From a virus, in IMG/VR virus record IMGVR_UViG_3300002461_000488, positions 1-37,307 of that record: a stretch of 37,307 nt of DNA; one strand, given 5' to 3'. Positions within the stretch are counted from its first letter, which is position 1; the number at the start of each line of letters is the position of its first letter. The notes beneath the pieces were generated by a model. It worked only from the letters and a program-made list of their open reading frames with translations, did not search any database and was not told the DNA's origin. Shown in pieces: positions 2,781 to 36,949 of this stretch. The translations under genes and the position numbers were made by a program.

Positions 2781-2809
2781 TTGACTTTTCAATTTTTACC
2801 ATTATAAAT
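2781..2809 (+). promoter_or_regulatory. class-A promoter (TTGACT + 12-mer variant TTACCATTATAA)
   Basis: TTGACT at 2781-2786 and the 12-mer at 2796-2807, with one mismatch to the consensus. Confidence 0.55.
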
Positions 2810-2845
2810 ATATATAAGGTAAGTATATTTTATAAGAAGAAAAAA

Positions 2846-3520
2846 ATGATTGATTTAAACACTATAACAACAGATAAATTTTTAAATGGAATAAACACAT
2901 TGATTAATAAACAAGAAATTGGTTTTTATAAATTATTAAATATTAAAATTACAGAAAAGCATAAAGAAATTATTAATACAGCAATTACATTAAGAAAATT
3001 AGTTAATGAAGATAGAGGGGTTGATAGTATAGAACAATACCAGCGACTTAATCCTGAACAAATAGACCTTAAAGCAATGATTGGTGAGTATATGTTCAGT
3101 AAATTATTATATATTATATCGACCAATGAAAAACAAAACCATATTGAAGTTATAACCCCTCCGTTTGCAGAAATGATTTTAAATAAAAAGAAACAAGATA
3201 TTGAAATAATTAAATATACAGATTATAAACAACAAGAAATTATTGATTACAAAACATTTGATATAAAAAGCCAATTTAAAAATAACAAAAATAATAATTT
3301 AAATATTAATATAAAAAGTTTTGATAGAATGAAAAAGCAAAGTAAGTTTTTTATATATGCAGAAATTGATGGAACACAAAACGATTTTACAACTAATAAT
3401 AATGTAAACTTTTATTTTATAAATAATGATTGGTATGAACAAAACTCTATTGAAGTATTAATATCAACATTTAAGAAATTTACACCATATAGATCTTTAC
3501 CATTAAAATTATTTAATTAA
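2846..3520 (+). CDS. hypothetical protein, weak PD-(D/E)XK-like pattern
   Basis: GEYMFSK ... IDYKTFDIKSQ ... FFIYAEIDG. Has its own class-A promoter and lies next to the iteron array. Confidence 0.5.
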   Translation: MIDLNTITTDKFLNGINTLINKQEIGFYKLLNIKITEKHKEIINTAITLRKLVNEDRGVDSIEQYQRLNPEQIDLKAMIGEYMFSKLLYIISTNEKQNHIEVITPPFAEMILNKKKQDIEIIKYTDYKQQEIIDYKTFDIKSQFKNNKNNNLNINIKSFDRMKKQSKFFIYAEIDGTQNDFTTNNNVNFYFINNDWYEQNSIEVLISTFKKFTPYRSLPLKLFN

Positions 3521-3533
3521 TTTATAAAAGTCA

Positions 3534-3562
3534 TTGACATTTATAAAATACCAGTATAAAAT
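3534..3562 (+). promoter_or_regulatory. class-A promoter (TTGACA + ATACCAGTATAAAAT)
   Basis: TTGACA at 3534-3539, a 17-nt spacer to TAAAAT, and a conserved TACCAGTATAA core. Confidence 0.65.
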
Positions 3563-3592
3563 ATAAATACATTAACAAAGGAGAAATCAAAA

Positions 3593-3781
3593 ATGCCACA
3601 TTTAAATTATGTATATAAAGTAAAGAAAGAAGATCGTAATGATTTTCAAGCACAATTTATGATACCACAAGATTTGTGGTTAGAATTTAAAAATGCTTGT
3701 AAAAATGCTGGAACTACACCAAGTAAAGAATTAAGAAATAAAATTCGTGAAACTTTACATTTAGAGGTAGTAGTTAAGTAA
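3593..3781 (+). CDS. ribbon-helix-helix (Arc/CopG-like) DNA-binding protein
   Basis: Beta-strand FQAQFMIPQDL followed by helices WLEFKNACKNAGTTPSKELRNKIRETL. RBS aaggag. Confidence 0.65.
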   Translation: MPHLNYVYKVKKEDRNDFQAQFMIPQDLWLEFKNACKNAGTTPSKELRNKIRETLHLEVVVK

Positions 3782-3862
3782 GTTTAGTAGGTTAATAGTT
3801 TTAAAGGTTTCTATTTAAAAAACCTTTATAAAAACAAAACCATTATAATATAGGAGATAAAA

Positions 3863-5983
3863 ATGGAAAAAAATAATAATAAGTTGGATTTATTAAAACA
3901 ACAGTCAATCGATGTAAGTGTAAATTTTTTACATAATTTAAGTAAAACAGAAAACTTTAATGAAATGAGCCGTGAGCAAATAAGAAGTGCTTGTAATAGT
4001 GCTGTTAAAACTCAAATTGGTAGAACAAATGAAGTTGAGTTATGTTCTTTTATTGAAGAAGCCCTTGATGCAATTATAATAATTGTTAAAGATTTAAATA
4101 AAGATTGTATTCTTACAAATAGATTAAGCAATGGTAAAACTATTGTTGAAATGACAGAAAAAGAATATTTAGAAACAGATGAGGGTTCTATTGATATTTT
4201 TGCAACTGAATGGGAAAATGCAAATATTAAAAAAGAAACTTTTAAAGAAGTTAAATTTAATTCAATGCTTGAAGAAGAAATTAAAGAAAAATCTATTGCT
4301 ATAAGAAAAGAAAAACAATTAAATTCAAAAACTGATCGTTTTGGTTTTAAATGCTTGGGATATAAAGATGATAAAAATTATGTTTGGAGCAATTTTAAAC
4401 AAGCATTATTTGTTGTTACACAAAAAGATTTGGCAAAAAACAATTATATAAATATGTTTGGTTTAAATTTTTTAGAGGCTACATATTCAAAATATAATCA
4501 TAAAGGCGAGTATGTTGGAATAGATACAACAAAACTATCTGGCGATATTATTGATGGTTGTGTTAATGCTGGTGTATTTAATTTAAGAAATATGTATGGT
4601 TTTGGTATATTTGTTGATCCACAAAATAAAGATCATTTAATTATTAATGGTGAAGAGATATGGGGAACAAATCCAGAATTTAAAGGCGATAGAGTATTTG
4701 GTAAAAATGTTTTTGCTAATATTAAAGATTTAGATTTTCCAAGTAATATTGAAGTTGCAACAAAAGAAGAAACAAAAGAATGGTATGATTTAATTGGCAC
4801 TTGGAATTACAAAAGAGGATTACAAGATCAATTATTAGTTTTTGGTTGGTCAATAGTTGCTCCTTTCTCTGGTGTTTTAAATTGGAGAACACATTTTAGT
4901 TTAACAGGAGAACAAGGAACTGGTAAATCAACATTACAAACAGGAATGGGTAATTTTATGGGTGAGTTTGCTTTGGTATTTGATGGACAATCAAGCGAGG
5001 CTGGTATTAGGCAAAAAGTTGGATCAAGTAGTTGTGCTGTGTTAATTGATGAGGCTGAGGCTAATTCAACAAAGATTGCACAAACATTAACATTTTTTAG
5101 AACAGCAAGTAGTTCAGGTATAGTTGCAAAAGGAACAAGTGATCAAACTGGTATGGATTTTATTCTTAAATTAACTGGTATGATTGGTGGTATTGTTGCA
5201 CCAGCATTAAATCCAGCAGATTTAAGCCGTTTTTTAAGAATTGAATTATTACCAAAAGGAGAGAAAGTACACCCATTATTATTTGATATTGAAAGACAAA
5301 ATGAAATTGGTAAAAAAACAATTATGTTTATCATTAAAAATTACAAAATGTTTAAATCTGTATGTAAAAAAGTAAGAAAAAACTTATTGGCTGATTATGA
5401 TAATTCAAGATATGCTGACAGTTTTACTACTTTAATTTCCGGTGCATACATTGGTTTAAATCAAAATGATAATGACTCTGATATTGCTGAATTTATGAAA
5501 CATTTTAATTTTGAGAAAGAAAAAATACAAATGTCTAATAAAGATCATAATAACTTATTAAACAAAATACTTAAAACAAGTTTTAGAAGTGAGGTTGGTA
5601 TGTATTCTGTTATTGAAATGATAAACGGATTATTTAATAAAGATAACGATATTGAAATGAAAAAGGATTTAAAAAGAACATTGGGACGTAATGGTATGAA
5701 AGTTGAAGAAACAGAGGGAAGTTTTAAATTGTTTATGTCAACCAAAGATGATAACTTTATTAAGATATTTAGAGGTAGTAAATTTGATGCTGGTGATATT
5801 ACTTCTGTTATTACTCGTGTTGATGGTAGTGAGTTATTAAAGGATAGTATAATGATAGGTGGAACAAGATCACAAAGATCAACAGTTGTTGTTATTGATT
5901 TACCTAAAAAAGATTATTCATTTAGAGAAGAAGACACAAAAGTAATAACAGTTATTGAAGATGATGAAATACCTTTTAATTAA
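3863..5983 (+). CDS. P-loop replicative NTPase, primase/helicase-like (SF3/D5- or DUF927-type)
   Basis: Walker A GEQGTGKST and Walker B AVLIDEAE in the central region, with a large N-terminal domain. RBS taggagataa. Confidence 0.55.
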   Translation: MEKNNNKLDLLKQQSIDVSVNFLHNLSKTENFNEMSREQIRSACNSAVKTQIGRTNEVELCSFIEEALDAIIIIVKDLNKDCILTNRLSNGKTIVEMTEKEYLETDEGSIDIFATEWENANIKKETFKEVKFNSMLEEEIKEKSIAIRKEKQLNSKTDRFGFKCLGYKDDKNYVWSNFKQALFVVTQKDLAKNNYINMFGLNFLEATYSKYNHKGEYVGIDTTKLSGDIIDGCVNAGVFNLRNMYGFGIFVDPQNKDHLIINGEEIWGTNPEFKGDRVFGKNVFANIKDLDFPSNIEVATKEETKEWYDLIGTWNYKRGLQDQLLVFGWSIVAPFSGVLNWRTHFSLTGEQGTGKSTLQTGMGNFMGEFALVFDGQSSEAGIRQKVGSSSCAVLIDEAEANSTKIAQTLTFFRTASSSGIVAKGTSDQTGMDFILKLTGMIGGIVAPALNPADLSRFLRIELLPKGEKVHPLLFDIERQNEIGKKTIMFIIKNYKMFKSVCKKVRKNLLADYDNSRYADSFTTLISGAYIGLNQNDNDSDIAEFMKHFNFEKEKIQMSNKDHNNLLNKILKTSFRSEVGMYSVIEMINGLFNKDNDIEMKKDLKRTLGRNGMKVEETEGSFKLFMSTKDDNFIKIFRGSKFDAGDITSVITRVDGSELLKDSIMIGGTRSQRSTVVVIDLPKKDYSFREEDTKVITVIEDDEIPFN

Positions 5984-6001
5984 TTAGTATAAAAATAATA
6001 A

Positions 6002-6025
6002 GCCCCATTTAATGGGGTTTTATTT
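6002..6025 (+). terminator. rho-independent terminator
   Basis: GCCCCATT / AATGGGGT hairpin followed by T-rich sequence. Confidence 0.7.
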
Positions 6026-6098
6026 ATTACATAAAGGGATTGTATTTTGTATTAGTTGTGATATAATTTACTGTATATACAATAAGAGTTAGGAATAT

Positions 6099-6440
6099 AT
6101 GAAACAAAAACAATTTGATACTAATATTATATTTAGAACAACATTAACATTAAAAGATAAGTTTAAACAATGGTGTAAAGATAATAACACAACAATAAGT
6201 AAAGAGTTTAATAATCATATGGAGTCTATAATTAATAATAGACCAAGATTAAAGGATATGAAAGTTGAAACAATAAACGGTACTTACATAGGTAAAGGAC
6301 ACCCATTACATAGTTATTATGTAACAGATGAACAGTATGATAAGTTTAATACTCTGTATGGTAGTAATGTTGATAACTGTAATGATGAAGAGTTAAAGGC
6401 TTTATGTTTAGAGATAAAGCAAGCAAATGGTAATAGATAA
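6099..6440 (+). CDS. RHH-domain protein (paralog of 3593..3781) with C-terminal extension
   Basis: IIFRTTLTLKDKFKQWCKDNNTTISKEFNNHMESII parallels the RHH of the 62-aa protein, sharing a TT-x-SKE segment. Confidence 0.55.
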   Translation: MKQKQFDTNIIFRTTLTLKDKFKQWCKDNNTTISKEFNNHMESIINNRPRLKDMKVETINGTYIGKGHPLHSYYVTDEQYDKFNTLYGSNVDNCNDEELKALCLEIKQANGNR

Positions 6441-6454
6441 TAGAGAGGTTTAAT

Positions 6455-6832
6455 ATGTATAACAACTATAATAACTACGATGATAATGTAATGGAAGAAG
6501 AACTATTTAATAATAATAGTAAGCAATTAAGTAAGAGTTCAAAGACTATGGAAGAAACAACTAATGATATGTTAAAGTTGTTTGTTCGTGAGAATAAGAC
6601 AACAGTATTAAAAGATTTAACTGTTGGTTATGTTATGTTTATGAAAGATATAAACAACTCAAAGTTATATATTGATAGTGTTAATACATTAAAGAATAAG
6701 TACAATGCCTTTATGATAGATGTATATTATGATTACAGAAATATTAATAAGAGTATAAGTGAGGCTGGTTATCTTCGTTATGCTAATGGTAAGTTGAATG
6801 AGTTACTTAAACAAAGATACTTGGTTAGTTAA
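6455..6832 (+). CDS. hypothetical protein (125 aa)
   Basis: ORF with RBS gagagg upstream. No motif recognised. Confidence 0.5.
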   Translation: MYNNYNNYDDNVMEEELFNNNSKQLSKSSKTMEETTNDMLKLFVRENKTTVLKDLTVGYVMFMKDINNSKLYIDSVNTLKNKYNAFMIDVYYDYRNINKSISEAGYLRYANGKLNELLKQRYLVS

Positions 6833-6884: not shown

Positions 6885-6937
6885 AGGTTCTCCCGCAAGG
6901 GTAAAACATTAAAGCGGTGGAACAGCGTCGAGGTTAT
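6885..6937. other. GC-rich island immediately upstream of the terminase genes; candidate cosN region
   Basis: aggttctcccgcaagggtaaaacattaaagcggtggaacagcgtcgaggttatc stands out in an otherwise A/T-rich intergenic region. It occupies the position that cos holds in lambda-like GpA-terminase phages. Confidence 0.35.
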
Positions 6938-6998
6938 CTTTTTACGAGTTTTTAAAATTTAGTTTACTTTACTTTTTAGTTTACTTTTTCCAAGAAAT

Positions 6999-7070
6999 AA
7001 AAAAAACCATCAATAGGAGTTGATGGCTTCTTTCATAGGGAGATAACAATGAAATTATTTTAATAATCTC
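6999..7070 (-). ncRNA. candidate ~70-nt antisense small RNA carrying an anti-Shine-Dalgarno stretch
   Basis: It lies between a near-consensus minus-strand promoter (7077-7105) and a minus-oriented intrinsic terminator: CCATCAA/TTGATGG hairpin at 7007-7026 plus an 8-nt U run from A8 at 6999-7006. No plausible ORF. Confidence 0.35.
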
Positions 7071-7076
7071 AATTTA

Positions 7077-7105
7077 ATTATATTGTATATACATAAAAAA
7101 GTCAA
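7077..7105 (-). promoter_or_regulatory. minus-strand sigma70-like promoter TTGACT-17nt-TATAAT
   Basis: The reverse complement of 7077-7105 reads TTGACTTTTTTATGTATATACAATATAAT. The spacer contains the GTATATAC palindrome. Confidence 0.6.
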
Positions 7106-7218
7106 TCATATTTTTAAAATATATTTAATTTACTTTACTTTACTTTTAAACTTTCTATTTAAGAAATTTTTGATATAATTCTTTTAAGTATATACAATAA
7201 AATATAAAGGTTTTTAAA

Positions 7219-14265: not shown

Positions 14266-14442
14266 TTATATCCATTTACCTTTTGTATTTTTAATTATAT
14301 ATTCATTTTGTTGAATAATAATTGAGTTAAGTTTTAAATTAATTTCTTGATATTGTTTTATTGTAAATAATAATGAAAAATTTAAATAAACAACAAATGT
14401 AATAACTAAAACAAATAAACTTAAAATAATTTTTTTAAACAT
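14266..14442 (-). CDS. small membrane protein (58 aa), third gene of the antisense cassette
   Basis: Hand translation: MFKKIILSLFVLVITFVVYLNFSLLFTIKQYQEINLKLNSIIIQQNEYIIKNTKGKWI, with one N-terminal TM segment. ATGTTTAA overlap with the upstream ORF. Not in the ORF track. Confidence 0.5.
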   Translation of the reverse strand: MFKKIILSLFVLVITFVVYLNFSLLFTIKQYQEINLKLNSIIIQQNEYIIKNTKGKWI

Positions 14443-14530
14443 TTTTATACCCCTTTTTTAATGATAATCTTAATTCTTCTTTTCCCATTTCTTTTAAAAT
14501 GTTTTTAATCCATAAATATATTTTTTTCAT
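14435..14530 (-). CDS. small basic peptide (31 aa)
   Basis: Hand translation: MKKIYLWIKNILKEMGKEELRLSLKKGYKNV. RBS aaggagat lies 5 nt upstream. Confidence 0.45.
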   Translation of the reverse strand: MKKIYLWIKNILKEMGKEELRLSLKKGYKNV

Positions 14531-14662: not shown

Positions 14663-14691
14663 ATTTATACTGGTAATTTTATAAAAGTCAA
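14663..14691 (-). promoter_or_regulatory. class-A promoter on the minus strand
   Basis: The reverse complement reads TTGACTTTTATAAAATTACCAGTATAAAT. Confidence 0.6.
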
Positions 14692-14713: not shown

Positions 14714-14741
14714 TTGATTTTATTATTTATTATGATATAAT
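14714..14741 (+). promoter_or_regulatory. class-B promoter TTGATT-16nt-(TG)aTATAAT restarting the structural operon
   Basis: TTGATT at 14714-14719 and TATAAT at 14736-14741. Nearly the same 30-mer occurs at 17795-17822. Confidence 0.6.
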
Positions 14742-17296: not shown

Positions 17297-17728
17297 TTAT
17301 CCTTTATAACTTTTAGGGTTTAATATTTCACTTACAAAATTTACTGTTTCATTATTTTTATTAATAATTAATAATTCTTTATTTTTTTCTTTAAATTCTT
17401 CAAAATTTTTAAGTTTTCTATATTCAACAGTATTACCCATTTTTATAGCATTTTCTATACCACAAGCCATACCAGAACTAATACCTAAATCTGTATATAC
17501 AATTGTTTGATGAATTATTTTTCTAAACTCAAAACCAGCCTCAATACCAAAATTTCTTTCTTCTAAAATATTATCATCTAATATTTGTGTATAAAGTAAA
17601 TGTGATAAGTAAGGTGCCTCACCATTATATAAACACTCTTTCATACACTCACGAGCATAAAGTACATTATACTCTTGTTGTTTTACATTTTTATTGAAAA
17701 ATGGACTTTCTATTATTACTAATTTCAT
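17297..17728 (-). CDS. conserved phage protein, nucleoside 2-deoxyribosyltransferase-like fold family (DUF4406/DUF7768-type?)
   Basis: IIESPF...YARECMKECLYNGEAPYLSHLLYTQILDD...ERNFGIEAG...VYTDLGISSGMACGIENA matches a recurrent phage family as I recall it. RBS aaggagat. Confidence 0.5.
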   Translation of the reverse strand: MKLVIIESPFFNKNVKQQEYNVLYARECMKECLYNGEAPYLSHLLYTQILDDNILEERNFGIEAGFEFRKIIHQTIVYTDLGISSGMACGIENAIKMGNTVEYRKLKNFEEFKEKNKELLIINKNNETVNFVSEILNPKSYKG

Positions 17729-17759
17729 ATTATCTCCTTTTTTAATTAGTTATTTTTAA

Positions 17760-17785
17760 TTTACCAGTATAAAAATAAAAGTCAA
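17760..17785 (-). promoter_or_regulatory. class-A promoter on the minus strand with the 12-mer inverted
   Basis: The reverse complement reads TTGACTTTTATTTTTATACTGGTAAA. The 12-mer has the opposite orientation to the 14663 and 22996 copies. Confidence 0.55.
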
Positions 17786-22582: not shown

Positions 22583-22966
22583 TTAATCAATTATTTTCCA
22601 TATTTCTAAATTATCTATTTCTATATTAACTCTTTGTATTACTGTATTTAAATTATTATTTAATAAATTTTTAATAAGTGAAACTTTATATTTATTTATA
22701 CTTGTTTCAGTTAATAATTCTTTTTGTAATCTAAAAAAAGAATTAAAAAATTTATAATCCCATAAACCAAACTCAATATTATTTAATTTATTACTAAATT
22801 CAGTATAAGAAAAATTATCATTATTTATAAATTTTTGTAAATCTTCCAATTGTTTTAAAGTTATCTTTAAAATTTTACTTTTTTGTGTTTCTTTTCTAAA
22901 AACTTGATTTTCAGTTTTATCAAACTGTGTATTAAAATAAAAATCATCATATCTTGTATTTCTCAT
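22583..22966 (-). CDS. hypothetical protein (127 aa), antisense accessory gene
   Basis: RBS taggag, its own class-A promoter and a terminator. No motif recognised. Confidence 0.55.
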   Translation of the reverse strand: MRNTRYDDFYFNTQFDKTENQVFRKETQKSKILKITLKQLEDLQKFINNDNFSYTEFSNKLNNIEFGLWDYKFFNSFFRLQKELLTETSINKYKVSLIKNLLNNNLNTVIQRVNIEIDNLEIWKIID

Positions 22967-22995: not shown

Positions 22996-23023
22996 TTATA
23001 CTGGTAATTTTTAAAAAAGTCAA
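22996..23023 (-). promoter_or_regulatory. class-A promoter on the minus strand
   Basis: The reverse complement reads TTGACTTTTTTAAAAATTACCAGTATAA. Confidence 0.6.
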
Positions 23024-23110: not shown

Positions 23111-23995
23111 ATGGCTGATGTATTTTATAATGTAGTATTACCAGATCAATATTCCTATGGTGCAACTTTTGGCCCAAGGTTTAAAACTAATATTGTGATG
23201 GTTAATTCAGGAAAAGAACAGAGAAATGCAGACTGGCAAGATGCATTGTGGGAAATATCAATAAATTATACAACAAAAAGAAAAGAAGAAGTACAAGATA
23301 TTGAAAATTTATTTTTACAAACAAAAGGCCCTTTAATTCCTTTCTTATTTAATAGTAAAAAAGATAATGAAGTTACTTTAACACAAGGTATAGCAAATAG
23401 TGATGGAGTATTAAAAGGTCATCCAAAGTTTAGATTATTTAAAACTTATGTTTTTGAACCAAGTTTTACTAAATATAATAAAAGAATTTTTAAACCCGTT
23501 CCAGCAAGTGTACAAGTTTATAATAATGGTGTATTAACTGGTTGGACTGTTGATTATTTAAACGGTACTGTTGAATTACCTGTAATTTCAAGTAAAGAAA
23601 TAACAGCAATAACAAAAGCAACTAATGGACAAATTACAGCAATTGGACACGGTTTTACAACAGGTAATAAAATTTATTTAGATAATATAACTGGAATGAC
23701 ACAATTAAATAAAATGGTTGTAACTGTTGTTAGTGTTATTGATGCAGATAATTTTACAATAAATATTAATACTTTAAGTTATTCAACTTTTACATATACA
23801 GCATTAACAAGTTATGCAAAAAAATATATAACTGGAACAGAAAATATAACTTGGTCTGGTCAATTTTATTTACCAGTTCGTTTTAAAGAAGATGTTATAA
23901 CTACAAGTTATGATACTTTTAATTCTTTATCTGTTTCTGTAACACTTGTAGAATTAAGATTAGATGAAGTAAATGAAGAACAATTGGACGATTAA
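23111..23995 (+). CDS. distal tail protein, DUF2460 / RcGTA g12-like
   Basis: N-terminal LPDQYSYGATFGPRFKTNIVMVNSGKEQRNADW matches the DUF2460 (TIGR02217-type) signature as I recall it. Confidence 0.7.
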   Translation: MADVFYNVVLPDQYSYGATFGPRFKTNIVMVNSGKEQRNADWQDALWEISINYTTKRKEEVQDIENLFLQTKGPLIPFLFNSKKDNEVTLTQGIANSDGVLKGHPKFRLFKTYVFEPSFTKYNKRIFKPVPASVQVYNNGVLTGWTVDYLNGTVELPVISSKEITAITKATNGQITAIGHGFTTGNKIYLDNITGMTQLNKMVVTVVSVIDADNFTININTLSYSTFTYTALTSYAKKYITGTENITWSGQFYLPVRFKEDVITTSYDTFNSLSVSVTLVELRLDEVNEEQLDD

Positions 23996-23998
23996 TAT

Positions 23999-24880
23999 AT
24001 GCTTACAATATCAAATAATTTAAGAAATAGAACAATTGGTAATCAAGTTTTAACATTAGGAACTTGTATTAAAATTGTTTTAAAAAATGGTAAAAAACTT
24101 GGTTTTACAACTCATACAAGTAATGTAAGATTTATAGAAGAACCAGAATTAATATATTATAGTAAAGGTTTTACACCTACGGCTATTTCAAAAAATAATG
24201 AAATGTCTGTCGATAATGCTGATGGTCAAATGATTATTGATAACACAAATGTTTTACAAAGTGATTTAGAAAGTGGTATTTATAATAATGCTTATTATGA
24301 ATTATGGGATTTTGATTGGACTTTAAAAACAAATGGTTATTATTCTTATAATGATAGATTAAGAGATATTAACGGAACAATTGGAGAAGTAAAAAGAGAT
24401 AAACTACAATATACAACAGAATATAGATCTCTTGCTCAATATCTTGCAACTACAATAATTGATTTATATAAAGCATCTTGTAATGCAAATTTTGGAGATG
24501 CTCGTTGTGGTAAAGATTTATCAACATTAACTTTTACTGATTCTGTTGGTGCAGTTATAAAAAGTAATGAGTTTATTGTAAATACATTAACACAAGTTGA
24601 TAATTTTTATAATAATGGAATTGTTGAATTTACAAGTGGAGATAATATAGGTAAAAAATATAAAATAAAATCTTGGATAAATTCAACAAAAACAATTATT
24701 TTACAAATGCCAATGAATTACCAATTACAAGTTGGAGATACAGCAATTTTTGTTGCTGGTTGTAATAAAGATAAAACAGATTGTAAATTTTTTGGTAACT
24801 ATGTTAATTATAGAGGTTTTATGGAAATACCAGGTTTAGATTTTATATCAACTGGTGGTGGTACAAAAATTAATTATTAA
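23999..24880 (+). CDS. tail hub protein, DUF2163 / RcGTA g13-like with BR0599-type C-terminus
   Basis: C-terminal CNKDKTDCKFFGNYVNYRGFMEIPG matches the C..C..F.N..N(F/Y)RGF..IPG signature. Confidence 0.7.
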   Translation: MLTISNNLRNRTIGNQVLTLGTCIKIVLKNGKKLGFTTHTSNVRFIEEPELIYYSKGFTPTAISKNNEMSVDNADGQMIIDNTNVLQSDLESGIYNNAYYELWDFDWTLKTNGYYSYNDRLRDINGTIGEVKRDKLQYTTEYRSLAQYLATTIIDLYKASCNANFGDARCGKDLSTLTFTDSVGAVIKSNEFIVNTLTQVDNFYNNGIVEFTSGDNIGKKYKIKSWINSTKTIILQMPMNYQLQVGDTAIFVAGCNKDKTDCKFFGNYVNYRGFMEIPGLDFISTGGGTKINY

Positions 24881-24891
24881 AAGGTTAAGTT

Positions 24892-25380
24892 ATGAATAAA
24901 AGTAAACGTGATGTTTTTGTTAATGAAAGTTTAAAATATGTTGATGTTGGTTTTGAACATCAAGGAAGAAATTTATTAAAACATAAAATTATAAAAAAAG
25001 AAGATAAGAAAAAATTTAAACTTGATTGTGCTGGTTTAGTTATTGAAACAATGAGTGATACAAATTTATTACAAGATGGTCAAGATTTAATATTTACAAA
25101 TTATTCTCGTATTCCTGACGGTTCTTCTCTTGTAAGTCATTTAAATAATAATTGTGATATTAAAAATTGGGAAACATTACAAAAAGGAGATATATTACTT
25201 ATGGCTTTTGGTGGTAATGCAACACACTTGGCAATATATTTAGGAGATTATTTAAATATTGGAGCAGATTATATTATACATAGTTATATTTTAAGTCGTA
25301 AAGTTATTATACATAGATTTGACAGCCAGTGGAAAGAAAAAGTTGTAGGTATTTATTCTTTAAAAAATATTGATAATTAA
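24892..25380 (+). CDS. NlpC/P60 (C40) peptidase, RcGTA g14-like
   Basis: LDCAGLV (catalytic Cys) and THLAIYLG (His). Its position matches the GTA-type tail module. Confidence 0.7.
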   Translation: MNKSKRDVFVNESLKYVDVGFEHQGRNLLKHKIIKKEDKKKFKLDCAGLVIETMSDTNLLQDGQDLIFTNYSRIPDGSSLVSHLNNNCDIKNWETLQKGDILLMAFGGNATHLAIYLGDYLNIGADYIIHSYILSRKVIIHRFDSQWKEKVVGIYSLKNIDN

Positions 25381-25438
25381 AAACTATCAAATTAAGAAAT
25401 TTTTAAATATAATTATAAAGAAATAAAGGAAGATTATT

Positions 25439-28400
25439 ATGAGATTAGTTGGTGGTGTAGTTGGTGCAGTGATAGGAGCATACTTTGGCAACCCTTATGC
25501 TGGTTACGCTATTGGTAGTGCTATCGGTGGTGCTTTTGAACCACCACAAAAATTTAAACAAGAGGGTCCAAGATTAACTGATTTGAAAGTTACTAATTCT
25601 TCTTATTCCATTGGAAAACCAAAAGTATTTGGAACTTATAGAATGTCAGGTAATTTAATTTTTTCAACAGCATTAAAAGAAACTGTTAATGTAGAAACAC
25701 AAGAACAAGGTAAAGGTGGTGGTGGAACTGAAACAGAAACTACAACATATACTTATCGTGCAACTTGCGCTTATGCTTTATGTGAGGGTATTATTTCTGG
25801 TGTTCGTCGTATTTGGTGGGAGGGTAAATTAGTTTATGATTATTCACAAAACAATAACGGTTTTATAGGTAATATTGGTGGATATATTAAGGTTTATAAT
25901 GGAACTGAAACACAACTACCAGATCCATCAATTGAGGCTGAATTAGGTGTAGGAGAAGTGCCAGGATACAGAGGAACAGCATATATAGTATTTACAGATA
26001 TGCAATTGGCTGAATTTAATAATCGTATACCTAATTTTACATTTGAAGTAATAAGATCACCTAATAATGTTAATACAGGTAAATTTGATATTATTGATGT
26101 AAGTGCTGATTTATCAAGTAAAAATACTGGTTATTTAGAATATAATGAAGTAAATCGTTTTATATATTTAAATGTTAATAATGCAAGTCCTAATCCTGAA
26201 TTATATAAATTAGATCCATATAATAATACTATTGTTGCAAGTAATTTAACATTACCAAATAATTCATCATATAATGATGTAGTTAAAAGTATGAAAATAA
26301 ATATATTACAAAATGGTGATTTAGTTATTGGTAATAAAAATATTTCTGGTTTTGGTACTGGTTGGTATGTATTAGATCAAGATAGTTTACAAATTAAACA
26401 AATTATAGATTATAGAAATATACCAGACTGGACAGGATATACAACAGCAAGTTTTAGAGCACCACCAAACTTACAATCTTATAAAGATGGTGATATTGAT
26501 TTTTATGTTGGTTGTTCACAAAATGCAAGTCTTGGTTTTCAATTTTTTAAATTTACAAGTTTTAATGGTAATTTTGCAATTAACGATTGGTCATTGGCTA
26601 TTAGTAATCCAGCAGTTAACATAGGAACATTACCACAATCAAGTTTAACTTATGGAAATATTTTTAATGTTGATAAAGTTACTAATAAAGTATATTGGAC
26701 TGTTTCAACACAAAATTATCAAAGTTCTGGGAATAGAGCACTTGTTTTAAGTTGTTTTGATATGAGTAGTAAATTAGTAACTGATAATTACCAATTATTA
26801 AAATCAAGTGCTACTGATAGTTTTAATGTTCAAGATATGTTTTTTGATAAAATAACAAGATGTATTTTTATTTTATATCATAATGTAACTACAAATCGTG
26901 GTTATTTTATGAAATATAATGTAGACACAAATACAATTATAAGTGACATAGTAATAACTGATGGTATGGGTAATTATCCAAGTTTAAGTGGTACTAATAA
27001 AACTGTTGGTATGGATAAAAGTTTTAGAAGATTATATTTTCCTTATTCTGTTTCAATTTCTGGAACAACAAGATATTTTATTTATTATTTAAAAGTTGAT
27101 ACAAATGATTTTGAAGTTTTAGAAACTACAAATAATTCAAGTTGGACTACAAATAATATTGGTAATACTAATAGTGCTTTTGCAACTCAATTAGGTTGTG
27201 AGTTTTATTTAGGTAATAATTCATCAACAAAAATATTAAAAAATTATGGACCAAGATTAACACTTGGAACATATCCATTAGATCAATGTGTTTTAGAAAT
27301 AATTAAAGATAGTAAATTAGATTTAAATAGTGTTGATGTAACAGAATTATCAAGTGATGTTGTTTATGGTTTTTGTATTCCTAATTCAAGTGCAATTCGT
27401 GCTTGTTTAGAACAATTATCTATTGCTTATAATTTCAATATGGTTGAAAGTGATTATAAACTTAAATTTAGAAAAAATGGAGGTAATTCTGTTAGAACAA
27501 TTAATATTAATGAATTAAGTGCTGTAAATTATTCTCCTGATATTAAATTTGATAGTGATATTACAACAGAATCAAAAATGGAATTAGAATTACCACAAAT
27601 GGTTAATTTAACATATGCAGATATAGACCGTGATTATCAAAATAATACACAAGAAAGTAAATATGAAAATGTAGACACAAACGAAATACAAAATATTGAG
27701 TTACCAATGGTATTTAATTCAAATCAAGCAAAGAAAATTGTTGATAGAATTTTATATCAACAATGGATAAATCGTTACACTTATACTTTCTCAACTAATT
27801 ATGATTATATAGAAATTGAGCCTTGTGATGTAATAACTATTGAAAGTGATACACAAAAATTTACTATGAAAATTCTTAAAAAAGAAAAGGGTGGTGGTAT
27901 TATTAAATGGACTGGTGTTGCTGAGGATAGTGCAGTTTTTACACAAATAAATAATGGTTCAAGTGGTGGAGATATTTCACAACAAATACCTGTAATATCA
28001 ACAAGTAAATTATTCTTTTTAGATATTCCAATATTACAAAACACTGATAATGATCCTGGTGTATATGTTGCATCAAATAGACAAAATAGTAATTTAACTT
28101 GGACTGGTTCAAGTGTTTATATTTCAGATCAAAGTAATGGTAATTATATTGAACAAGCAAGTTTTTTTAATGAAATAATAAGTGGAACAACAACAACAAA
28201 ATTAGATAATTTTATTTATGATAATATGACAGATGCTTTATCTTCTGTTACTGTTAAATTATTTAGAGGTACATTAGCAAGTATTAACGATGATCAATTA
28301 GATCAAGGTTATAATACTTGTTTAATAGGTGATGAAGTTTTACAATTTAAAAATGCAACATTAATTGATACAGATACATACACATTAGATACTTTTTATA

Positions 28401-28936
28401 GGGGTCGTTTTGGTAGTGAGCAATTTATATCACAACATAATATTGGTGATCGTTTTATTATACTTAATTCTTCAAGTAGAACTTTACAAAGAATAATGAA
28501 AGATCAATCACAACTTAATATTTTAAGATACTTTAAAAATGTATCATTTAAAGATAGTTTATTAAATACAAGTTATACACAATTTGTAAATACTGGTGTT
28601 GGATTAAAACCATATTCTGTAAACAATATACAAGCATTAAGATCAACAAATGGTAGTTTAAATGTAAAATTTACAAAAAGAGTTAGAGGTTTTGCACAAT
28701 TATTAGATTACAAAGATGCTTTTGATCCTGATGGAGATTATTACGAGGTTGATATTTGCACAGACAATACTTATTCTGTTGTAAAAAGAACATTAACAGT
28801 TAATGCAACAAATTTTGTATATACAACAGCAGATCAAATATCTGATTTTGGTTCAAATCAAGCAGTAATATATTTAATTATATATAAAACTAATAAAATT
28901 ATAGGTCGTGGTTATCAAAGTACAGCAGTTTTATGA
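25439..28936 (+). CDS. host-specificity / central tail fibre protein, RcGTA g15-like
   Basis: Gly-zipper N-terminus GGVVGAVIGAYFG..GSAIGGAF, then EGPRLTDLKVTNSSYSIGKPKVFGTYRMSGNLIF, typical of alphaproteobacterial phage tail proteins. 1165 aa. Confidence 0.75.
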   Translation: MRLVGGVVGAVIGAYFGNPYAGYAIGSAIGGAFEPPQKFKQEGPRLTDLKVTNSSYSIGKPKVFGTYRMSGNLIFSTALKETVNVETQEQGKGGGGTETETTTYTYRATCAYALCEGIISGVRRIWWEGKLVYDYSQNNNGFIGNIGGYIKVYNGTETQLPDPSIEAELGVGEVPGYRGTAYIVFTDMQLAEFNNRIPNFTFEVIRSPNNVNTGKFDIIDVSADLSSKNTGYLEYNEVNRFIYLNVNNASPNPELYKLDPYNNTIVASNLTLPNNSSYNDVVKSMKINILQNGDLVIGNKNISGFGTGWYVLDQDSLQIKQIIDYRNIPDWTGYTTASFRAPPNLQSYKDGDIDFYVGCSQNASLGFQFFKFTSFNGNFAINDWSLAISNPAVNIGTLPQSSLTYGNIFNVDKVTNKVYWTVSTQNYQSSGNRALVLSCFDMSSKLVTDNYQLLKSSATDSFNVQDMFFDKITRCIFILYHNVTTNRGYFMKYNVDTNTIISDIVITDGMGNYPSLSGTNKTVGMDKSFRRLYFPYSVSISGTTRYFIYYLKVDTNDFEVLETTNNSSWTTNNIGNTNSAFATQLGCEFYLGNNSSTKILKNYGPRLTLGTYPLDQCVLEIIKDSKLDLNSVDVTELSSDVVYGFCIPNSSAIRACLEQLSIAYNFNMVESDYKLKFRKNGGNSVRTININELSAVNYSPDIKFDSDITTESKMELELPQMVNLTYADIDRDYQNNTQESKYENVDTNEIQNIELPMVFNSNQAKKIVDRILYQQWINRYTYTFSTNYDYIEIEPCDVITIESDTQKFTMKILKKEKGGGIIKWTGVAEDSAVFTQINNGSSGGDISQQIPVISTSKLFFLDIPILQNTDNDPGVYVASNRQNSNLTWTGSSVYISDQSNGNYIEQASFFNEIISGTTTTKLDNFIYDNMTDALSSVTVKLFRGTLASINDDQLDQGYNTCLIGDEVLQFKNATLIDTDTYTLDTFYRGRFGSEQFISQHNIGDRFIILNSSSRTLQRIMKDQSQLNILRYFKNVSFKDSLLNTSYTQFVNTGVGLKPYSVNNIQALRSTNGSLNVKFTKRVRGFAQLLDYKDAFDPDGDYYEVDICTDNTYSVVKRTLTVNATNFVYTTADQISDFGSNQAVIYLIIYKTNKIIGRGYQSTAVL

Positions 28937-30520: not shown

Positions 30521-30551
30521 AAAAACTATCCACTTTTTAGTGGATTTTTTA
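30521..30551 (+). terminator. rho-independent terminator
   Basis: ATCCACT / AGTGGAT hairpin plus T6. Confidence 0.7.
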
Positions 30552-32540: not shown

Positions 32541-32568
32541 TTATTTATTTTTATGATAATATATTTAA

Positions 32569-32679: not shown

Positions 32680-32754
32680 CTGTGTTTAGGCTATTGGCAA
32701 GTCACTTCCTTTGGAGCGAAGATATAGTAAGTTCGATTCTTACAGCACAGACCA
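32680..32754 (+). tRNA. tRNA, probable Pro(UGG), with encoded CCA
   Basis: Hand-folded cloverleaf of 75 nt including CCA. Acceptor CTGTGTT/AGCACAG (one G-U), D stem GGCT/AGTC, anticodon arm CTTCC-TTTGGAG-CGAAG (C31-C39 mismatch) and T arm GTAAG-TTCGATT-CTTAC. Confidence 0.7.
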
Positions 32755-32770
32755 AAATTATATATAATAA

Positions 32771-32803
32771 GGCAATCAATAATGATTGTCTTTTCTTTTT
32801 TTT
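32771..32803 (+). terminator. rho-independent terminator after the tRNAs
   Basis: GGCAATCA / TGATTGTC hairpin plus a long T-run. Confidence 0.65.
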
Positions 32804-32836: not shown

Positions 32837-33061
32837 ATGGAAAATCAACATAGACTTATTAAAGGTTATAAAGAATTATCACAAGAACAAATTAATTTAA
32901 TGAATACAATTAAATCAAAAGGTGCTGAATTATTAATTTTAATTAAACAATTAGAACAAGATAAAGAAACTGATAAAAGGTGGGTTTCTATTGGTAAAAC
33001 AGACTTACAAACTGGATTTATGGCATTAACAAGAAGTGTAACTAAACCTGATTTTTTATAA
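32837..33061 (+). CDS. small helical protein, possibly of the Acb2/Tad1-hairpin-like family
   Basis: EQINLMNTIKSKGAELLILIKQLE ... DKRWVSIGKTDLQTGFMALTRSVTKP fits the recurrent phage motif RW.aIa.T.LQ.GfM...R as I recall it. Confidence 0.4.
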   Translation: MENQHRLIKGYKELSQEQINLMNTIKSKGAELLILIKQLEQDKETDKRWVSIGKTDLQTGFMALTRSVTKPDFL

Positions 33062-33467: not shown

Positions 33468-33476
33468 AAGGTTTAT

Positions 33477-33779: not shown

Positions 33780-33790
33780 AGGTGGTTAAT

Positions 33791-34198: not shown

Positions 34199-34200
34199 TT

Positions 34201-34470: not shown

Positions 34471-34673
34471 TAGACATATTAATTAATGGGGTTATTACAG
34501 ATTACCCTCAGAGTATAGCAGAATATATACATTTAAAAGATGAAATTGTTAATTTAGAATACCACCAAGATCAATTAACAGAAAAAGGTAAAAAATCATT
34601 TAATGCTTTAAAAGAAAGTATTAAAAATTTTGAAGAAGAAAACAAAGAATATATACAAAAGGTCATATTATGA
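34467..34673 (+). CDS. hypothetical protein (68 aa)
   Basis: 4-nt overlaps with both neighbouring genes. Confidence 0.45.
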   Translation: MIDILINGVITDYPQSIAEYIHLKDEIVNLEYHQDQLTEKGKKSFNALKESIKNFEEENKEYIQKVIL

Positions 34674-34861
34674 ATTTATACACAACATTATTTTTAATTT
34701 TTTTAACATTAAAATTAACAGATTTAATACATTGGGGTTGGCTTGCAGTTTTTAGCCCTTTAATTTTTCCTATTTTAATAATTATTTTTTTATCAACATT
34801 TATGAGTAAAGAAGAATTAGATAAAAAAAGACAAGAATATTTAAAAAAATATAAAAAATAA
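34670..34861 (+). CDS. small two-TM membrane protein
   Basis: LYTTLFLIFLTLKLT and WLAVFSPLIFPILIIIFLSTF, followed by a basic tail. Confidence 0.5.
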   Translation: MNLYTTLFLIFLTLKLTDLIHWGWLAVFSPLIFPILIIIFLSTFMSKEELDKKRQEYLKKYKK

Positions 34862-34870
34862 GAGGAAATT

Positions 34871-35068
34871 ATGGCAAGGTATGATTATAAATGTTTAAAT
34901 AAAGATTGTAATAAATTTAATATTGTTTTTGAAGTTACACAATCAATCAAAGAAGATAAATTAAAAACTTGTGAATGCTGTAAAAAAGATACATTAGAAA
35001 GATTAATAACAGCACCTCCAAGTTTTACATTAAAAGGACAAGGTTGGTATAGTAATGGAACACACTAA
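34871..35068 (+). CDS. FmdB-family zinc-ribbon protein
   Basis: MARYDYKC..C ... C..CC plus the C-terminal GQGWY motif typical of the FmdB/TIGR02605 family. Confidence 0.7.
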   Translation: MARYDYKCLNKDCNKFNIVFEVTQSIKEDKLKTCECCKKDTLERLITAPPSFTLKGQGWYSNGTH

Positions 35069-36107
35069 TAAAATTAATAATATTAAACTTGGGGATTATT
35101 TTAAAATTGGTAAACACTATATATTATGTGGTGATTCAACTGATAAAAATATGGTTGGTAATTTTTTTAATAACATTAATTTAAAAGTTGATGTTATATT
35201 TGCAGATCCACCTTATGGAATGGATAAAGAAATAATTAATGATAATTTAAAAGGTAATAATCTTTTAAAGTTTAATTTAAAGTTTTTAGAAACAATAGAT
35301 AGTATTAAAAATAAAAATGCAAGTATTTATATTTGTGGACAACCACAAGTTTTATGGAACTTTTATTTTAATAGTGATTTATGTAATAAAGAAAAATACC
35401 TTTTAAAAAATGAGATAACTTGGGATAAAGGTGATGCTGGTGCTGGTGGTGTTTCTTTCATTGGTAAAGCAGATATGAAGTCATACCCAATATCAACTGA
35501 AACTATTTTATTTTTTCACTCTGGAAATTTTAATAATAATAAAGATAACTTTAATAAAGATTATGAAAACATTTTAAATTATCTTTTAAGTGAATACAAA
35601 AAAAGTAATTTAAGAGCAGTTGATTATAAAAAATTAACTAATAGTTATATGTATAATCATTATTTTAGTAAATCACAATTTACTTTAATTTCAAAAAAAC
35701 ATTATGAAATTTTACAAAACAAAACTGGTAATTTCTTAAAAGATTATCAAGAGTTATTAAATGAATATAAAAATGCAGAAAAACAAAATATAAATTATTT
35801 TAATAACTCACACGATAAAATGACTAATGTATGGAAATATGGAAGAGTTAAAGGAAAAGAAAGATATAATCATCCCACACCAAAACCAAAAAATTTAATT
35901 AAAAGAATTGTAAACAGTAGTAGTGTTGATGGTAATATTATTTGTTCTTTATTTGCTGGTTCTGGTGTTGATTATATTGCTTGTGAAGAGTTAAACCGTA
36001 TTTGTACTGGCATAGAATACGATCCAAAATGGGTTGAAGTAATATTACAAAGATTAGAAGAATTAGGTTATAAAAGAGAATATTTAGGGAATTTAAAAAT
36101 AATATAA
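35055..36107 (+). CDS. beta-class DNA N6-adenine/N4-cytosine methyltransferase
   Basis: Motif IV DVIFADPPYG is N-terminal. HPTPKPKNLI and motif I LFAGSGV are C-terminal. Confidence 0.8.
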   Translation: MEHTNKINNIKLGDYFKIGKHYILCGDSTDKNMVGNFFNNINLKVDVIFADPPYGMDKEIINDNLKGNNLLKFNLKFLETIDSIKNKNASIYICGQPQVLWNFYFNSDLCNKEKYLLKNEITWDKGDAGAGGVSFIGKADMKSYPISTETILFFHSGNFNNNKDNFNKDYENILNYLLSEYKKSNLRAVDYKKLTNSYMYNHYFSKSQFTLISKKHYEILQNKTGNFLKDYQELLNEYKNAEKQNINYFNNSHDKMTNVWKYGRVKGKERYNHPTPKPKNLIKRIVNSSSVDGNIICSLFAGSGVDYIACEELNRICTGIEYDPKWVEVILQRLEELGYKREYLGNLKII

Positions 36108-36111
36108 ATGA

Positions 36112-36139
36112 TTGATTTTTTATTATATTGTGATAATAT
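36112..36139 (+). promoter_or_regulatory. class-B-like promoter TTGATT-16nt-TAATAT (with TGTGATAAT)
   Basis: TTGATT at 36112-36117 and TAATAT at 36134-36139. Confidence 0.5.
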
Positions 36140-36145
36140 ATTAAT

Positions 36146-36320
36146 GATGACTTTAAAGATTGGTTTGGGGTAAATTTGCTCTTAATAACTCAACAGTCAA
36201 GGGTAAGAAAGACTATATCTCGTAAAGGTATAGCATACCAAAATCTTAGTATAATAACTTGGAATAAGAGTCAGTTAATATTATATGTAATTAAACCACT
36301 TTAAAAGGTGGTTTTTTTAT
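36146..36320 (+). ncRNA. candidate ~175-nt structured small RNA
   Basis: It has a promoter and an intrinsic terminator (ACCAC..GGTGG plus T7) but no ORF longer than 9 codons. It is locally GC-enriched. Hand-found helices are AAGATT/AATCTT, CTCTTA/TAAGAG, AGTC/GACT and GGTAT/ATACC. Confidence 0.4.
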
Positions 36321-36333
36321 TTTCTAAAAAGTA

Positions 36334-36364
36334 TTGATTTTTATTTTTATACTGGTAATATATT
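36334..36364 (+). promoter_or_regulatory. class-A promoter with the 12-mer inverted (TTGATT..TTATACTGGTAA TAT)
   Basis: TTGATT at 36334-36339 and the 12-mer at 36347-36358. Confidence 0.55.
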
Positions 36365-36394
36365 AAAACATATTAACTAATAGGAGATAAAAAT

Positions 36395-36865
36395 ATGGAT
36401 AATTTAGAAGAACTTTTTAAAAGAGTTAAACAATACATTTTAAATCAAGAAAATCATAAAACTTATAACAGTGATGATTTTCCAGAAATTGAAGATGAAA
36501 ATTTAGATAATAATGAATGTAGATTAATGTATATGTTGGGTTTTGAAAGAGCAAACGATCCTTTTACATATGTTATATTTACAACCATTAGACCAATAAG
36601 GTTTTTAATTGGTTACGATGAAGATATTAATAAAGAAACAGGAGAAATAACAAATAAACAATTATGTTTTCTTTTGCAAACAGATTGGGAAGAAGATCAA
36701 AGTATGGAAAACTCTAAAAAATATCATTATTTCGTAAATGATTATTTAGATTTTGATTTAAATAAAGTTAAAGATTTTTATAATAATTTATGCGATAAAT
36801 TACCAAGAAATAATTTTAATTTAGTAGAAGAAGAAATAGAAGAATTTTTTAAAGCAATTAAATAA
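36395..36865 (+). CDS. strongly acidic hypothetical protein (156 aa)
   Basis: RBS taggagataa. Many D/E residues. Self-contained promoter-gene-terminator unit. Confidence 0.55.
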   Translation: MDNLEELFKRVKQYILNQENHKTYNSDDFPEIEDENLDNNECRLMYMLGFERANDPFTYVIFTTIRPIRFLIGYDEDINKETGEITNKQLCFLLQTDWEEDQSMENSKKYHYFVNDYLDFDLNKVKDFYNNLCDKLPRNNFNLVEEEIEEFFKAIK

Positions 36866-36883
36866 AATAAATATATTAAATTA

Positions 36884-36910
36884 AAACCACTGTAAAAGGT
36901 GGTTTTTTTT
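36884..36910 (+). terminator. rho-independent terminator (near duplicate of 36293..36318)
   Basis: AAACCACTGTAAAAGGTGGTTTTTTTT compared with AAACCACTTTAAAAGGTGGTTTTTTT. Confidence 0.7.
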
Positions 36911-36920
36911 GTTCTTATGA

Positions 36921-36949
36921 TTGACTTTTTTATTATTACCAGTATAATT
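36921..36949 (+). promoter_or_regulatory. class-A promoter
   Basis: TTGACTTTTTTATTATTACCAGTATAATT. Confidence 0.65.

Follow-up and report, generated by a model that had tools for sequence, protein, structure and literature searches.

The window analysed here, a 37,307-nucleotide contig from an activated-carbon metagenome (IMG/VR virus record IMGVR_UViG_3300002461_000488), is the genome of a phage with a G+C content of ~25%, in which a 12-mer, TTACCAGTATAA, recurs in eight predicted promoters. A 58-bp direct repeat lies at both window ends and the last gene continues through the junction, so the window is a complete circular assembly of ~37.25 kb and the eight copies of the element are the full set. 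Packaging and head genes comprise a small and a large terminase (gpA type), a lambda-type portal and a protease-capsid fusion, and the tail genes encode a tail tube, a tape measure and an RcGTA-like distal tail. Other products include a primase/helicase, a DnaQ-like exonuclease, an HslV-like protein, a RuvC-like resolvase, an endolysin, spanin-like proteins, an Acb2/Tad1-like protein, a tRNA-Pro and a DNA methyltransferase, alongside many small open reading frames (ORFs) that carry no annotation. The ORFs scanned contained neither an integrase nor a CI-type repressor. A megablast search with 25 kb of the window gave no match among GenBank phages, and the large terminase is <=35% identical to that of any known or deposited phage.

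A pattern search of the window recovers the 12-mer exactly at five places and with one mismatch at three (Table 1), the same eight copies that an earlier, sequence-only reading of this DNA had reported; five of its coordinates were right, while the starts given as 3549, 17760 and 30599 were off by one and become 3548, 17761 and 30598. The 11-mer TACCAGTATAA has seven exact copies plus one variant, against a mean of 0.048 and a maximum of 1 in 1000 dinucleotide-preserving shuffles, and it is the most repeated G+C-containing 10/11-mer of the window. All eight copies lie in non-coding DNA, which makes up 10.4% of the genome (chance ~1e-8), and none occurs inside the coding DNA of the window. The observation is real and statistically strong.

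The placement of the copies is equally regular. Each is preceded by a -35 hexamer, TTGACT, TTGACA or TTGATT, as had been noted. The six forward copies lie 8, 9, 9, 9, 10 and 10 nt from their hexamer, and both inverted ones lie 7 nt away. Forward copies contribute a -10 of the form TATAA(A/T), with a resulting -35/-10 spacer of 15-17 nt. An extended -10 is marked by TG at -15/-14, and the two inverted copies contribute the TGg and the first TAA of such an element (TGgTAAnnT), each with a 16-nt spacer; the inversion itself had been recognised correctly, but the -10 does not simply lie just after the element, as had been thought. Hexamers and spacers are thus those of sigma-70-type promoters, and an AGGAG-like ribosome-binding site and an ATG follow 25-45 nt downstream. 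Since the gap between hexamer and 12-mer varies, the element is tied to the -10 rather than the -35. Its core, TAC-CA-GTA, is nearly palindromic and begins 9-11 nt past the -35 in all eight promoters, and because it always occupies this one place, inverted and forward copies differ mainly in the central CA/TG and the flanks. Across the eight copies the spacer varies in sequence and length; ACCAG does not.

Table 1. Positions in the window of the promoters, genes and sites discussed (targets and promoters as predicted).
Feature	Position	Strand	Details
Class II copies	1034, 6059, 7171 (small terminase), 14733, 17814, 23082 (TGATATAGT), 28956	+	Upstream of + strand genes
P2781	2781..2807	+	-35 TTGACT 2781-2786; one-mismatch variant element TTACCATTATAA 2796-2807, giving -10 TATAAA
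GGTAA, inverted copy of the element's TTACC half	2818..2822	+	17 nt past TTACC of the P2781 element
P3534	3534..3559	+	-35 TTGACA 3534-3539; one-mismatch element ATACCAGTATAA 3548-3559; drives ribbon-helix-helix (RHH) and primase/helicase genes
gp62	3593..3781	+	62-aa basic protein (pI 9.2); RHH-like fold from structure model and profile comparison
Primase/helicase	3863..5983	+	706 aa; PHROG DNA primase, E = 8e-47; co-transcribed with the RHH gene; terminator 6000-6020
Class II promoter with palindrome	6059..6080	+	TGATATAAT 6059-6067; GTATATAC 6073-6080 at ~+1; upstream of the 113-aa gene
gp113	6099..6440	+	113 aa; RHH-like N-terminus; paralogue of gp62 from sequence comparison
-35-type promoter	7105..7077	-	TTGACT-17-TATAAT; only strong intergenic one without the 12-mer; GTATATAC 7085-7092 in the same spacer slot
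P14691	14665..14691	-	-35 TTGACT 14691..14686; exact element 14676..14665 (-)
Antisense cassette of P14691	14540..14635, 14435..14530, 14266..14442	-	Three small ORFs; bidirectional terminator 14225
Class II example	14733..14741	+	TGATATAAT; restarts structural operon past antisense cassette
P17785	17758..17785	-	-35 TTGACT 17785..17780; exact element, inverted (17761-17772 on +); extended -10 TGgTAAATT 17766..17758 (hexamer 17763..17758)
DUF7768 gene	17297..17728	-	Antisense, behind P17785; bidirectional terminator 17164
P23023	22996..23023	-	-35 TTGACT 23023..23018; exact element 23007..22996 (-)
127-aa gene	22583..22966	-	Antisense, behind P23023; bidirectional terminator 22543
P30582	30582..30609	+	One-mismatch element ATACCAGTATAA 30598-30609; terminator 30528-30545 just before
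tRNA-Pro (UGG)	32680-32754		Followed by terminator 32769-32792
Acb2/Tad1-like gene	32837..33061		Hairpin-domain protein
N6/N4 DNA methyltransferase	35055..36107
P36334	36334..36361	+	-35 TTGATT 36334-36339; exact element, inverted (36347-36358, on -); extended -10 TGgTAATAT 36353-36361 (hexamer 36356-36361); terminator 36293-36314 just before
P36921	36921..36948	+	-35 TTGACT, 16-nt spacer, -10 TATAAT; exact element 36936-36947 (+); terminator 36883-36906 just before
DnaQ-like exonuclease gene	159..701		In the P36921 operon, past the circular junction

The genes behind these class I promoters, as we call those with a -35 and the element, are of several kinds. P2781 precedes a 224-aa gene that adjoins GTGTAG iterons, P3534 the genes for gp62 and the primase/helicase, and P14691, P17785 and P23023 three antisense units, each ending in a bidirectional terminator. 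Behind P30582 stands a unit of several genes, namely a 205-aa gene, a 51-aa gene and genes downstream. P36334 and P36921 precede genes for acidic proteins of 156 aa (pI 4.4) and 142 aa (pI 4.7), the second of which wraps over the circular junction, and the P36921 operon continues with the DnaQ-like exonuclease and a 68-aa protein. A PD-(D/E)xK-like protein is among the unannotated genes behind the 12-mer. The description of these targets as stand-alone accessory units therefore needs correction, since P2781 and P3534 drive replication genes, P30582 serves several genes and the P36921 operon wraps into the exonuclease gene. As for the iterons, (C/T)GTGTAG repeats lie at 2740-2775 upstream of the 224-aa gene, and they precede this gene in every relative as well (L052, L053, L055, L047 and L381, introduced below); the region is probably the replication origin and the 224-aa protein its initiator. 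A sequence with two mismatches to the 12-mer, TTACCATTAAAA, lies at 3497-3508; it falls within the 224-aa gene near its 3' end, 51 bp before the P3534 element, and may be a weak auxiliary site or due to chance.

No class I-controlled gene matches a known anti-defence family, and no known anti-CRISPR gene is present. The sole recognisable anti-defence gene, that of the Acb2/Tad1-like protein (a sponge for anti-CBASS and anti-Thoeris signals), stands behind a class II-like promoter, and of the Acb2-like, methyltransferase and DUF7768 genes only the last is under a 12-mer promoter. The DUF7768 protein, which resembles nucleoside 2-deoxyribosyltransferase, and the two acidic proteins are anti-defence candidates only.

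The genome has two stereotyped promoter classes, and the eight promoters form one of them, which agrees with their earlier treatment as a single group. The other, class II, consists of TGATATAAT, an extended -10 without a -35, and lacks the 12-mer. Its seven + strand copies are all non-coding and directly 5' of + strand genes, which encode packaging, head and tail proteins and a few others; three of them restart the structural operon, one after each antisense cassette. Class II is as stereotyped as class I, its free position always being A. Looser variants are found before the tRNA (TATGATAATAT at 32552) and before the Acb2-like gene (TATGATAGAAT at 32803). From its gene content, class I appears to be the early class.

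Conservation of the element can be followed in a graded series of relatives, contigs with L numbers that were retrieved via primase homologues. The close relatives, ~80% DNA-identical (L052, L299 and the IMG/VR contig L005/L007), retain TACCAGTATAA at orthologous promoters, the inverted copy included. When the window was compared with L052, L299, L007 and L005 (nine orthologous pairs in five promoter groups), identity was 96% in the 11-mer, 89% in the -35, 69% in the spacer and 75% in the next 20 nt. The 11-mer is thus the most conserved block of orthologous promoters, which supports the earlier argument that conservation beyond the needs of sigma-70 points to a protein operator. For example, the P3534 element is identical in L052 and L299, whose P2781 orthologues have TACCAGTA; the P14691 orthologue in L007 retains the element and the P17785 orthologue there its inverted orientation; and in L005 the P30582 orthologue keeps the element despite a strongly diverged spacer. 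L005 has, in addition, a site-bearing promoter before a gene that is absent from the window.

More distant lineages have changed the element in a concerted way. In L381 (69% primase identity) each of the three sites reads TACCACTA and TACCAGTA is absent, and L047 (56% primase identity) has TACTGATA-N12-TATCAGTA at the promoter of its RHH gene. At the promoter of the 224-aa gene, L381 carries an inverted pair, TACCACTA-N8-TAGTGGTA, at the same position as the GGTAA of the window, where the arrangement is TTACC-N17-GGTAA; GGTAA stands in the same place in L052 and L299, and could be a second half-site. The inverted pairs of L381 and L047 sit downstream of the -10. An operator had also been suspected because of the orientation independence of the element, and both orientations at a fixed place, together with the concerted lineage changes and the inverted pairs, strengthen that suspicion. 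Other lineages have other sequences. L048 lacks TACCAGTA, the class I promoters of L053-55 share a different -10-proximal block, TTATACATATAAT, and in L049-51 TATAGTATCATA lies just upstream of the -35; it abuts the -35 in four L049 promoters and recurs at the -10 of one. In L300 the promoter add-on reads TTGACA(G/T)ACATAAA, and five promoters have TATTGACA(G/T)ACATAAA. Downstream of the L053-55 promoter of the RHH and primase genes (L053 5400-5500, L054 30-75, L055 2150-2180) there are two or three AAGTGAT(T) repeats. The source of L049 and L050 is two bird genome assemblies (GCA_013565675 and GCA_013565755), in which they are presumably contaminant phage DNA. Wider searches added little: in scans of genome and metagenome contigs for TTGAC-N(10-12)-TACCAGTATAA, the matches listed were single and taxonomically scattered, with no host or further relatives among them, an IMG/VR search with the primase found only relatives <=36% identical, and a homologue search with gp62 found three proteins only.

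The candidate reader of the element is gp62, whose gene is the first behind the site-bearing P3534, a layout kept in L052, L299 and L381; a regulator gene placed first behind its own site-bearing promoter is the usual layout of an autoregulator. The AlphaFold2 model of gp62 (mean pLDDT 68.5) has a strand at residues 18-23 and helices at 26-39 and 45-54, the strand-helix-helix topology of an RHH protein. In an hhalign comparison gp62 matches its positional counterparts in L053-55 with 90% probability (E = 1.6e-6), and these in turn find two RHH proteins in the PDB, AvtR (E = 7e-5) and ParG (E = 6.5e-4), and, weakly, several RHH families of Pfam. Presence of the element tracks the small RHH gene, and the predicted DNA-reading strand of the protein changes in step with the element across lineages: FQAQFMIP accompanies TACCAGTA in the window, L052 and L299, YQAQFMLP accompanies TACCACTA in L381, and HQAQFLIN accompanies TATCAGTA and TACTGATA in L047. 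The repeat, its positions, its conservation and this co-variation with gp62 are all direct observations.

A mechanism that would account for them is an operator embedded in the -10, through which gp62 turns down the early regulon, and we give it about an even chance of being correct. Promoter activity, binding, repression, timing and the identity of the binder are what we infer here from sequence. The 12-mer (core TACCAGTA plus TAA) would be an operator that forms part of the -10 region in each strong early promoter of the -35 type. Upon infection, a host RNA polymerase of the sigma-70 type would fire the eight class I promoters, yielding the initiator-like protein, gp62 and the primase/helicase, the products of the exonuclease operon and of the three antisense cassettes, and the two acidic proteins. 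As gp62 accumulates, its dimer would bind the near-palindromic core at about -19 to -12 and block sigma access to the -10, and the whole class would be turned down together, gp62's own operon included. Because repression would act by occlusion, orientation would not matter, and the shape of the element would let either strand offer a -10, TATAAA in the forward and TGnTAAnnT in the inverted orientation. That the 12-mer is an operator is a reasonable reading with comparative support, though unproven.

Several points weigh against this mechanism. Neither Pfam nor NCBIfam gives a match for gp62 itself, and a Foldseek search with the monomer model found nothing below E = 1, a null result that is to be expected for an intertwined dimer; the RHH call for gp62 is therefore indirect. 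Most of the promoters hold a single site of 8-12 bp, whereas at least two neighbouring sites are required by many RHH repressors. The TACCACTA of L381 breaks the TAC/GTA symmetry. In L053-55 the RHH protein seems tied to the AGTGATT repeats, which occur only at replication promoters, and TTATACATATAAT is class-wide, so that by analogy a class-wide block could have a reader other than an RHH protein. L055 has TATCAGTATAAT at one promoter even though its RHH protein is of a different type. Finally, the co-variation rests on few, partial contigs.

Of the alternatives, the one that survives best is that class I is a stereotyped early promoter and nothing else, in which the bases upstream of TATAA suit the host RNA polymerase or sigma factor, or set promoter strength, and no separate protein binds. 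We regard this as unlikely, although it has something to recommend it. The element and the -10 are joined and shift together, as the -35 gap of 7-10 nt indicates; the TGATATAAT class is equally stereotyped, so uniformity could be a general habit of this phage's promoters; and the fixed block TTATACATATAAT of L053-55 could reflect another host. However, two copies are inverted at the same position, where other bases form the -10, and since recognition by RNA polymerase is directional, this favours a separate binder. The inverted pairs of L381 and L047 lie downstream of the -10, where polymerase recognition makes no sense, and the CCAG at -16 to -13 fits no sigma-70 contact known to us. In addition, when 2.9 million viral contigs were scanned, TTGAC-N10-WTACCAGTATAA was present in 46 stretches, with a single contig (L005/L007) being a true relative, against ~40 expected by a rough chance estimate; promoters therefore do not favour the motif in general. 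That the lineages carry their add-ons at other positions also argues against a preference of the host polymerase, which would be expected to be uniform; this argument is weak, because the hosts of the lineages are not known.

Alternatively, the element could be an operator with a different reader, namely a host regulator, the 113-aa RHH paralogue of gp62 (gp113) or an unrecognised phage protein, which we think rather improbable. The indirect family assignment of gp62 leaves room for such a reader, as do the many unannotated small ORFs of the window and the L053-55 lineage, whose RHH protein appears linked to a repeat other than the class-wide block. Yet the lineage variants track gp62 alleles, a host repressor acting on every early promoter would block infection unless relieved, and the ORFs scanned hold no sign of an integrase or a CI-type repressor. 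The paralogue, for its part, goes with a sequence of its own. An alignment of gp62 with the L052 homologue of gp113 has E = 2e-5; gp113 itself, which has a weak RelB/ParD match, matches the N-terminus of a 150-aa protein of L048 with E = 3e-8. The class II promoter before the gp113 gene is joined to the 8-bp palindrome GTATATAC, an arrangement that recurs in L299, L380, L381 and L048, and GTATATAC(A) is found again at 7188-7195, at ~+1 of P7171, the class II promoter of the small terminase gene. gp113-type genes and GTATATAC occur together in the window, L052, L299, L380, L381 and L048, and both are missing from L053-55. L048 is the most telling case: it has gp113 and GTATATAC, with neither a gp62-type gene nor the 12-mer, and its TTGACT promoters, including that of its DUF7768 gene, have GTATATAC in the spacer, where the window phage has TACCAGTA. 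For this reason GTATATAC is assigned to gp113, a candidate reader of the palindrome and not of the 12-mer, and the 12-mer is assigned to gp62 by elimination and co-variation. Thus GTATATAC is likely to be a second operator system. Going further, the two pairs of miniature RHH protein and 8-bp operator might run the gene programme as orthogonal switches, gp62-TACCAGTA for early and accessory genes and gp113-GTATATAC for the starts of late operons; both would use the slot from -20 to -12, and their operators could be swapped between lineages. The early operator, with a working -10 on each strand (TATAAA or TGnTAAnnT), could then be inserted either way round before a newly acquired gene and make it part of the early regulon at once. 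We consider this extension doubtful.

Two observations belong to the palindrome. First, CTGTATATACA occurs three times in coding DNA, near 10680, 16555 and 17491. Second, the - strand promoter that carries GTATATAC (Table 1) faces a stem-loop at 7007-7026 followed by a T run on the minus strand, and L052 and L048 have a comparable promoter; a small RNA of ~50-70 nt would be produced between gene 6455..6832 and the small terminase gene.

It is also conceivable that the promoters are paralogous copies of a mobile promoter or promoter-terminator cassette, whose shared sequence reflects descent and recombination; this we hold to be distinctly improbable as the whole explanation. PeSL cassettes of T4-type phages (PMC2839356), in which a strong early promoter adjoins a stem-loop, have such a layout, and like them and lambdoid morons the window has sigma-70-like early promoters and terminators before ORFans, also inside virion modules, with a gene content that varies among relatives. 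Three promoters stand directly after stem-loop terminators (30528/30582, 36293/36334 and 36883/36921), each antisense unit is an insert of promoter, gene and terminator that separates conserved structural genes, and at the same positions the window has three small ORFs, L054 three genes and L055 two. The extra site-bearing promoter of L005 fits as well. Nevertheless, descent alone predicts that the AT-rich spacer is as conserved as CCAG, whereas the spacers differ and ACCAG is nearly invariant, and a stretch of twelve identical bases is too short for homologous exchange. Selection by a reader is needed to account for the inverted copies and for the G-to-C change that L381 shows in concert at its three sites, and unlike PeSLs, which are defined by promoter and stem-loop with no operator or repressor proposed, the window has a specific, invertible 11-mer. 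The spread of cassettes is compatible with the operator model, as it may explain how the sites spread and not why they were retained.

Other candidates were tried and rejected. The element matches no known box of LexA or another host regulator, and TTAC-N3-GTAA, the Bdellovibrio LexA box, does not fit; nothing supports a target of the phage DNA methyltransferase; no ORF scanned has a sigma domain and the -35 is the sigma-70 consensus, against a phage sigma factor; the sites lie upstream of the predicted transcript start and the sole Rfam match in the window is a tRNA, against an RNA element; no suitable -35 lies on the opposite strand at forward sites, against a bidirectional promoter; and all eight sites are in promoters, two of them inverted relative to transcription and none in coding DNA, against stoperators of the Mycobacteriophage L5 type, which are numerous asymmetric repressor sites that lie mostly outside promoters and keep one orientation relative to transcription.

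Among known regulators, the omega repressor of pSM19035 offers one comparison for the proposed gp62 operator. Omega is an RHH global regulator that binds 7-bp heptads (WATCACW), direct or inverted, and as proposed for the window, one RHH dimer occupies each short site in either orientation at several promoters, including its own. Omega needs arrays of at least two heptads upstream of or over the promoter, whereas the window has mostly a single site fused to the -10. The AGTGATT repeats of L053-55 match the omega heptad on the other strand.

The claim that no described regulatory scheme corresponds to this arrangement does not hold, as there are two close precedents, Aca14 (PMC13551039) and the early regulatory sequences of archaeal viruses (PMC11065993). 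Aca14 is an RHH protein whose dimer recognises an AT-rich inverted repeat that overlaps the -10; it represses the operon it belongs to and an anti-defence operon next to it, and a single dimer on a single site suffices in vitro (PMC13551039); with one dimer and one inverted repeat over the -10 as precedent, the mechanism proposed for gp62 is feasible. As with Aca14 and other Aca autorepressors (PMC13551039; PMC9410906), a small DNA-binding protein of a phage or mobile genetic element stands behind a strong early promoter, and an AT-rich (pseudo)palindromic site over the -10 is common to its own and other operons. In the window the gp62 gene lies in a site-bearing operon, and in eight promoters the upstream end of the -10 is shared with the TAC-nn-GTA core. 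The differences are considerable. Compared with Aca14, the site is in eight promoters genome-wide, including replication operons and antisense cassettes in the structural operon, and the phage has a second RHH/palindrome pair; compared with Aca proteins in general, the regulator is first in a primase/helicase operon instead of last in an anti-CRISPR (acr) operon, no proven anti-defence gene is under the element, and the site is short, asymmetric, used in both orientations and itself forms the -10. Membership of the Aca family is therefore not claimed.

In archaeal viruses, virus-specific consensus early regulatory sequences precede accessory and anti-defence genes and the regulator's own gene (PMC11065993). 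As in these sequences (SIRV2, Aca8), the class I promoters combine a strong core promoter with a virus-specific flank that differs among related viruses, they serve many small early genes, and an early burst followed by repression is proposed. The archaeal system has promoters with a B recognition element and TATA box, a winged helix-turn-helix regulator and genes at the genome termini; the window has a bacterial -35/-10, an RHH candidate and genes that are dispersed and partly antisense. The two promoter classes have a parallel in Thermus phage P23-45, which switches from -35/-10 to extended -10 promoters via gp39 (PMC3950348), and where the structural genes are likewise on extended -10 promoters with no need for a -35. 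That switch is a polymerase-binding protein and not an operator; in the window no gp39-like protein was identified, and timing is suggested by gene content only.

If the proposed mechanism is true, the early regulon of an uncultured low-G+C phage is marked in its entirety by a single 12-mer. Host-takeover or anti-defence roles then become candidate functions of the unannotated genes that follow it, namely the three antisense cassettes, the DUF7768 protein, the PD-(D/E)xK-like protein and the two acidic proteins. The use of regulatory sequences to find anti-defence genes has been proposed (PMC11065993). RHH/Aca-type logic, seen so far at one or two adjacent operons, would then cover a set spread over the genome, replication genes among them, and operator and -10 would form one invertible unit that could serve synthetic promoters. 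The variants TACCAGTA, TACCACTA and TATCAGTA, together with small changes in a 60-aa protein, would provide a natural series for the study of RHH-DNA recognition.

Two further features of the genome concern its host and its packaging. The distal tail module (23111-28936) is of the RcGTA type (DUF2460, BR0599, NlpC/P60, Phage-tail_3, Rcc01698_C), and roseophages and Wolbachia WO are among the best terminase matches; because of this module and these matches, the host may, speculatively, be a low-G+C alphaproteobacterium. Upstream of the small terminase gene, a G+C-rich stretch at 6885-6935 is flanked by TTTACTTTAC repeats (~6950-6990 and ~7125-7150), and 6885-7160 is a candidate cos and terminase-binding region for a gpA-type terminase.

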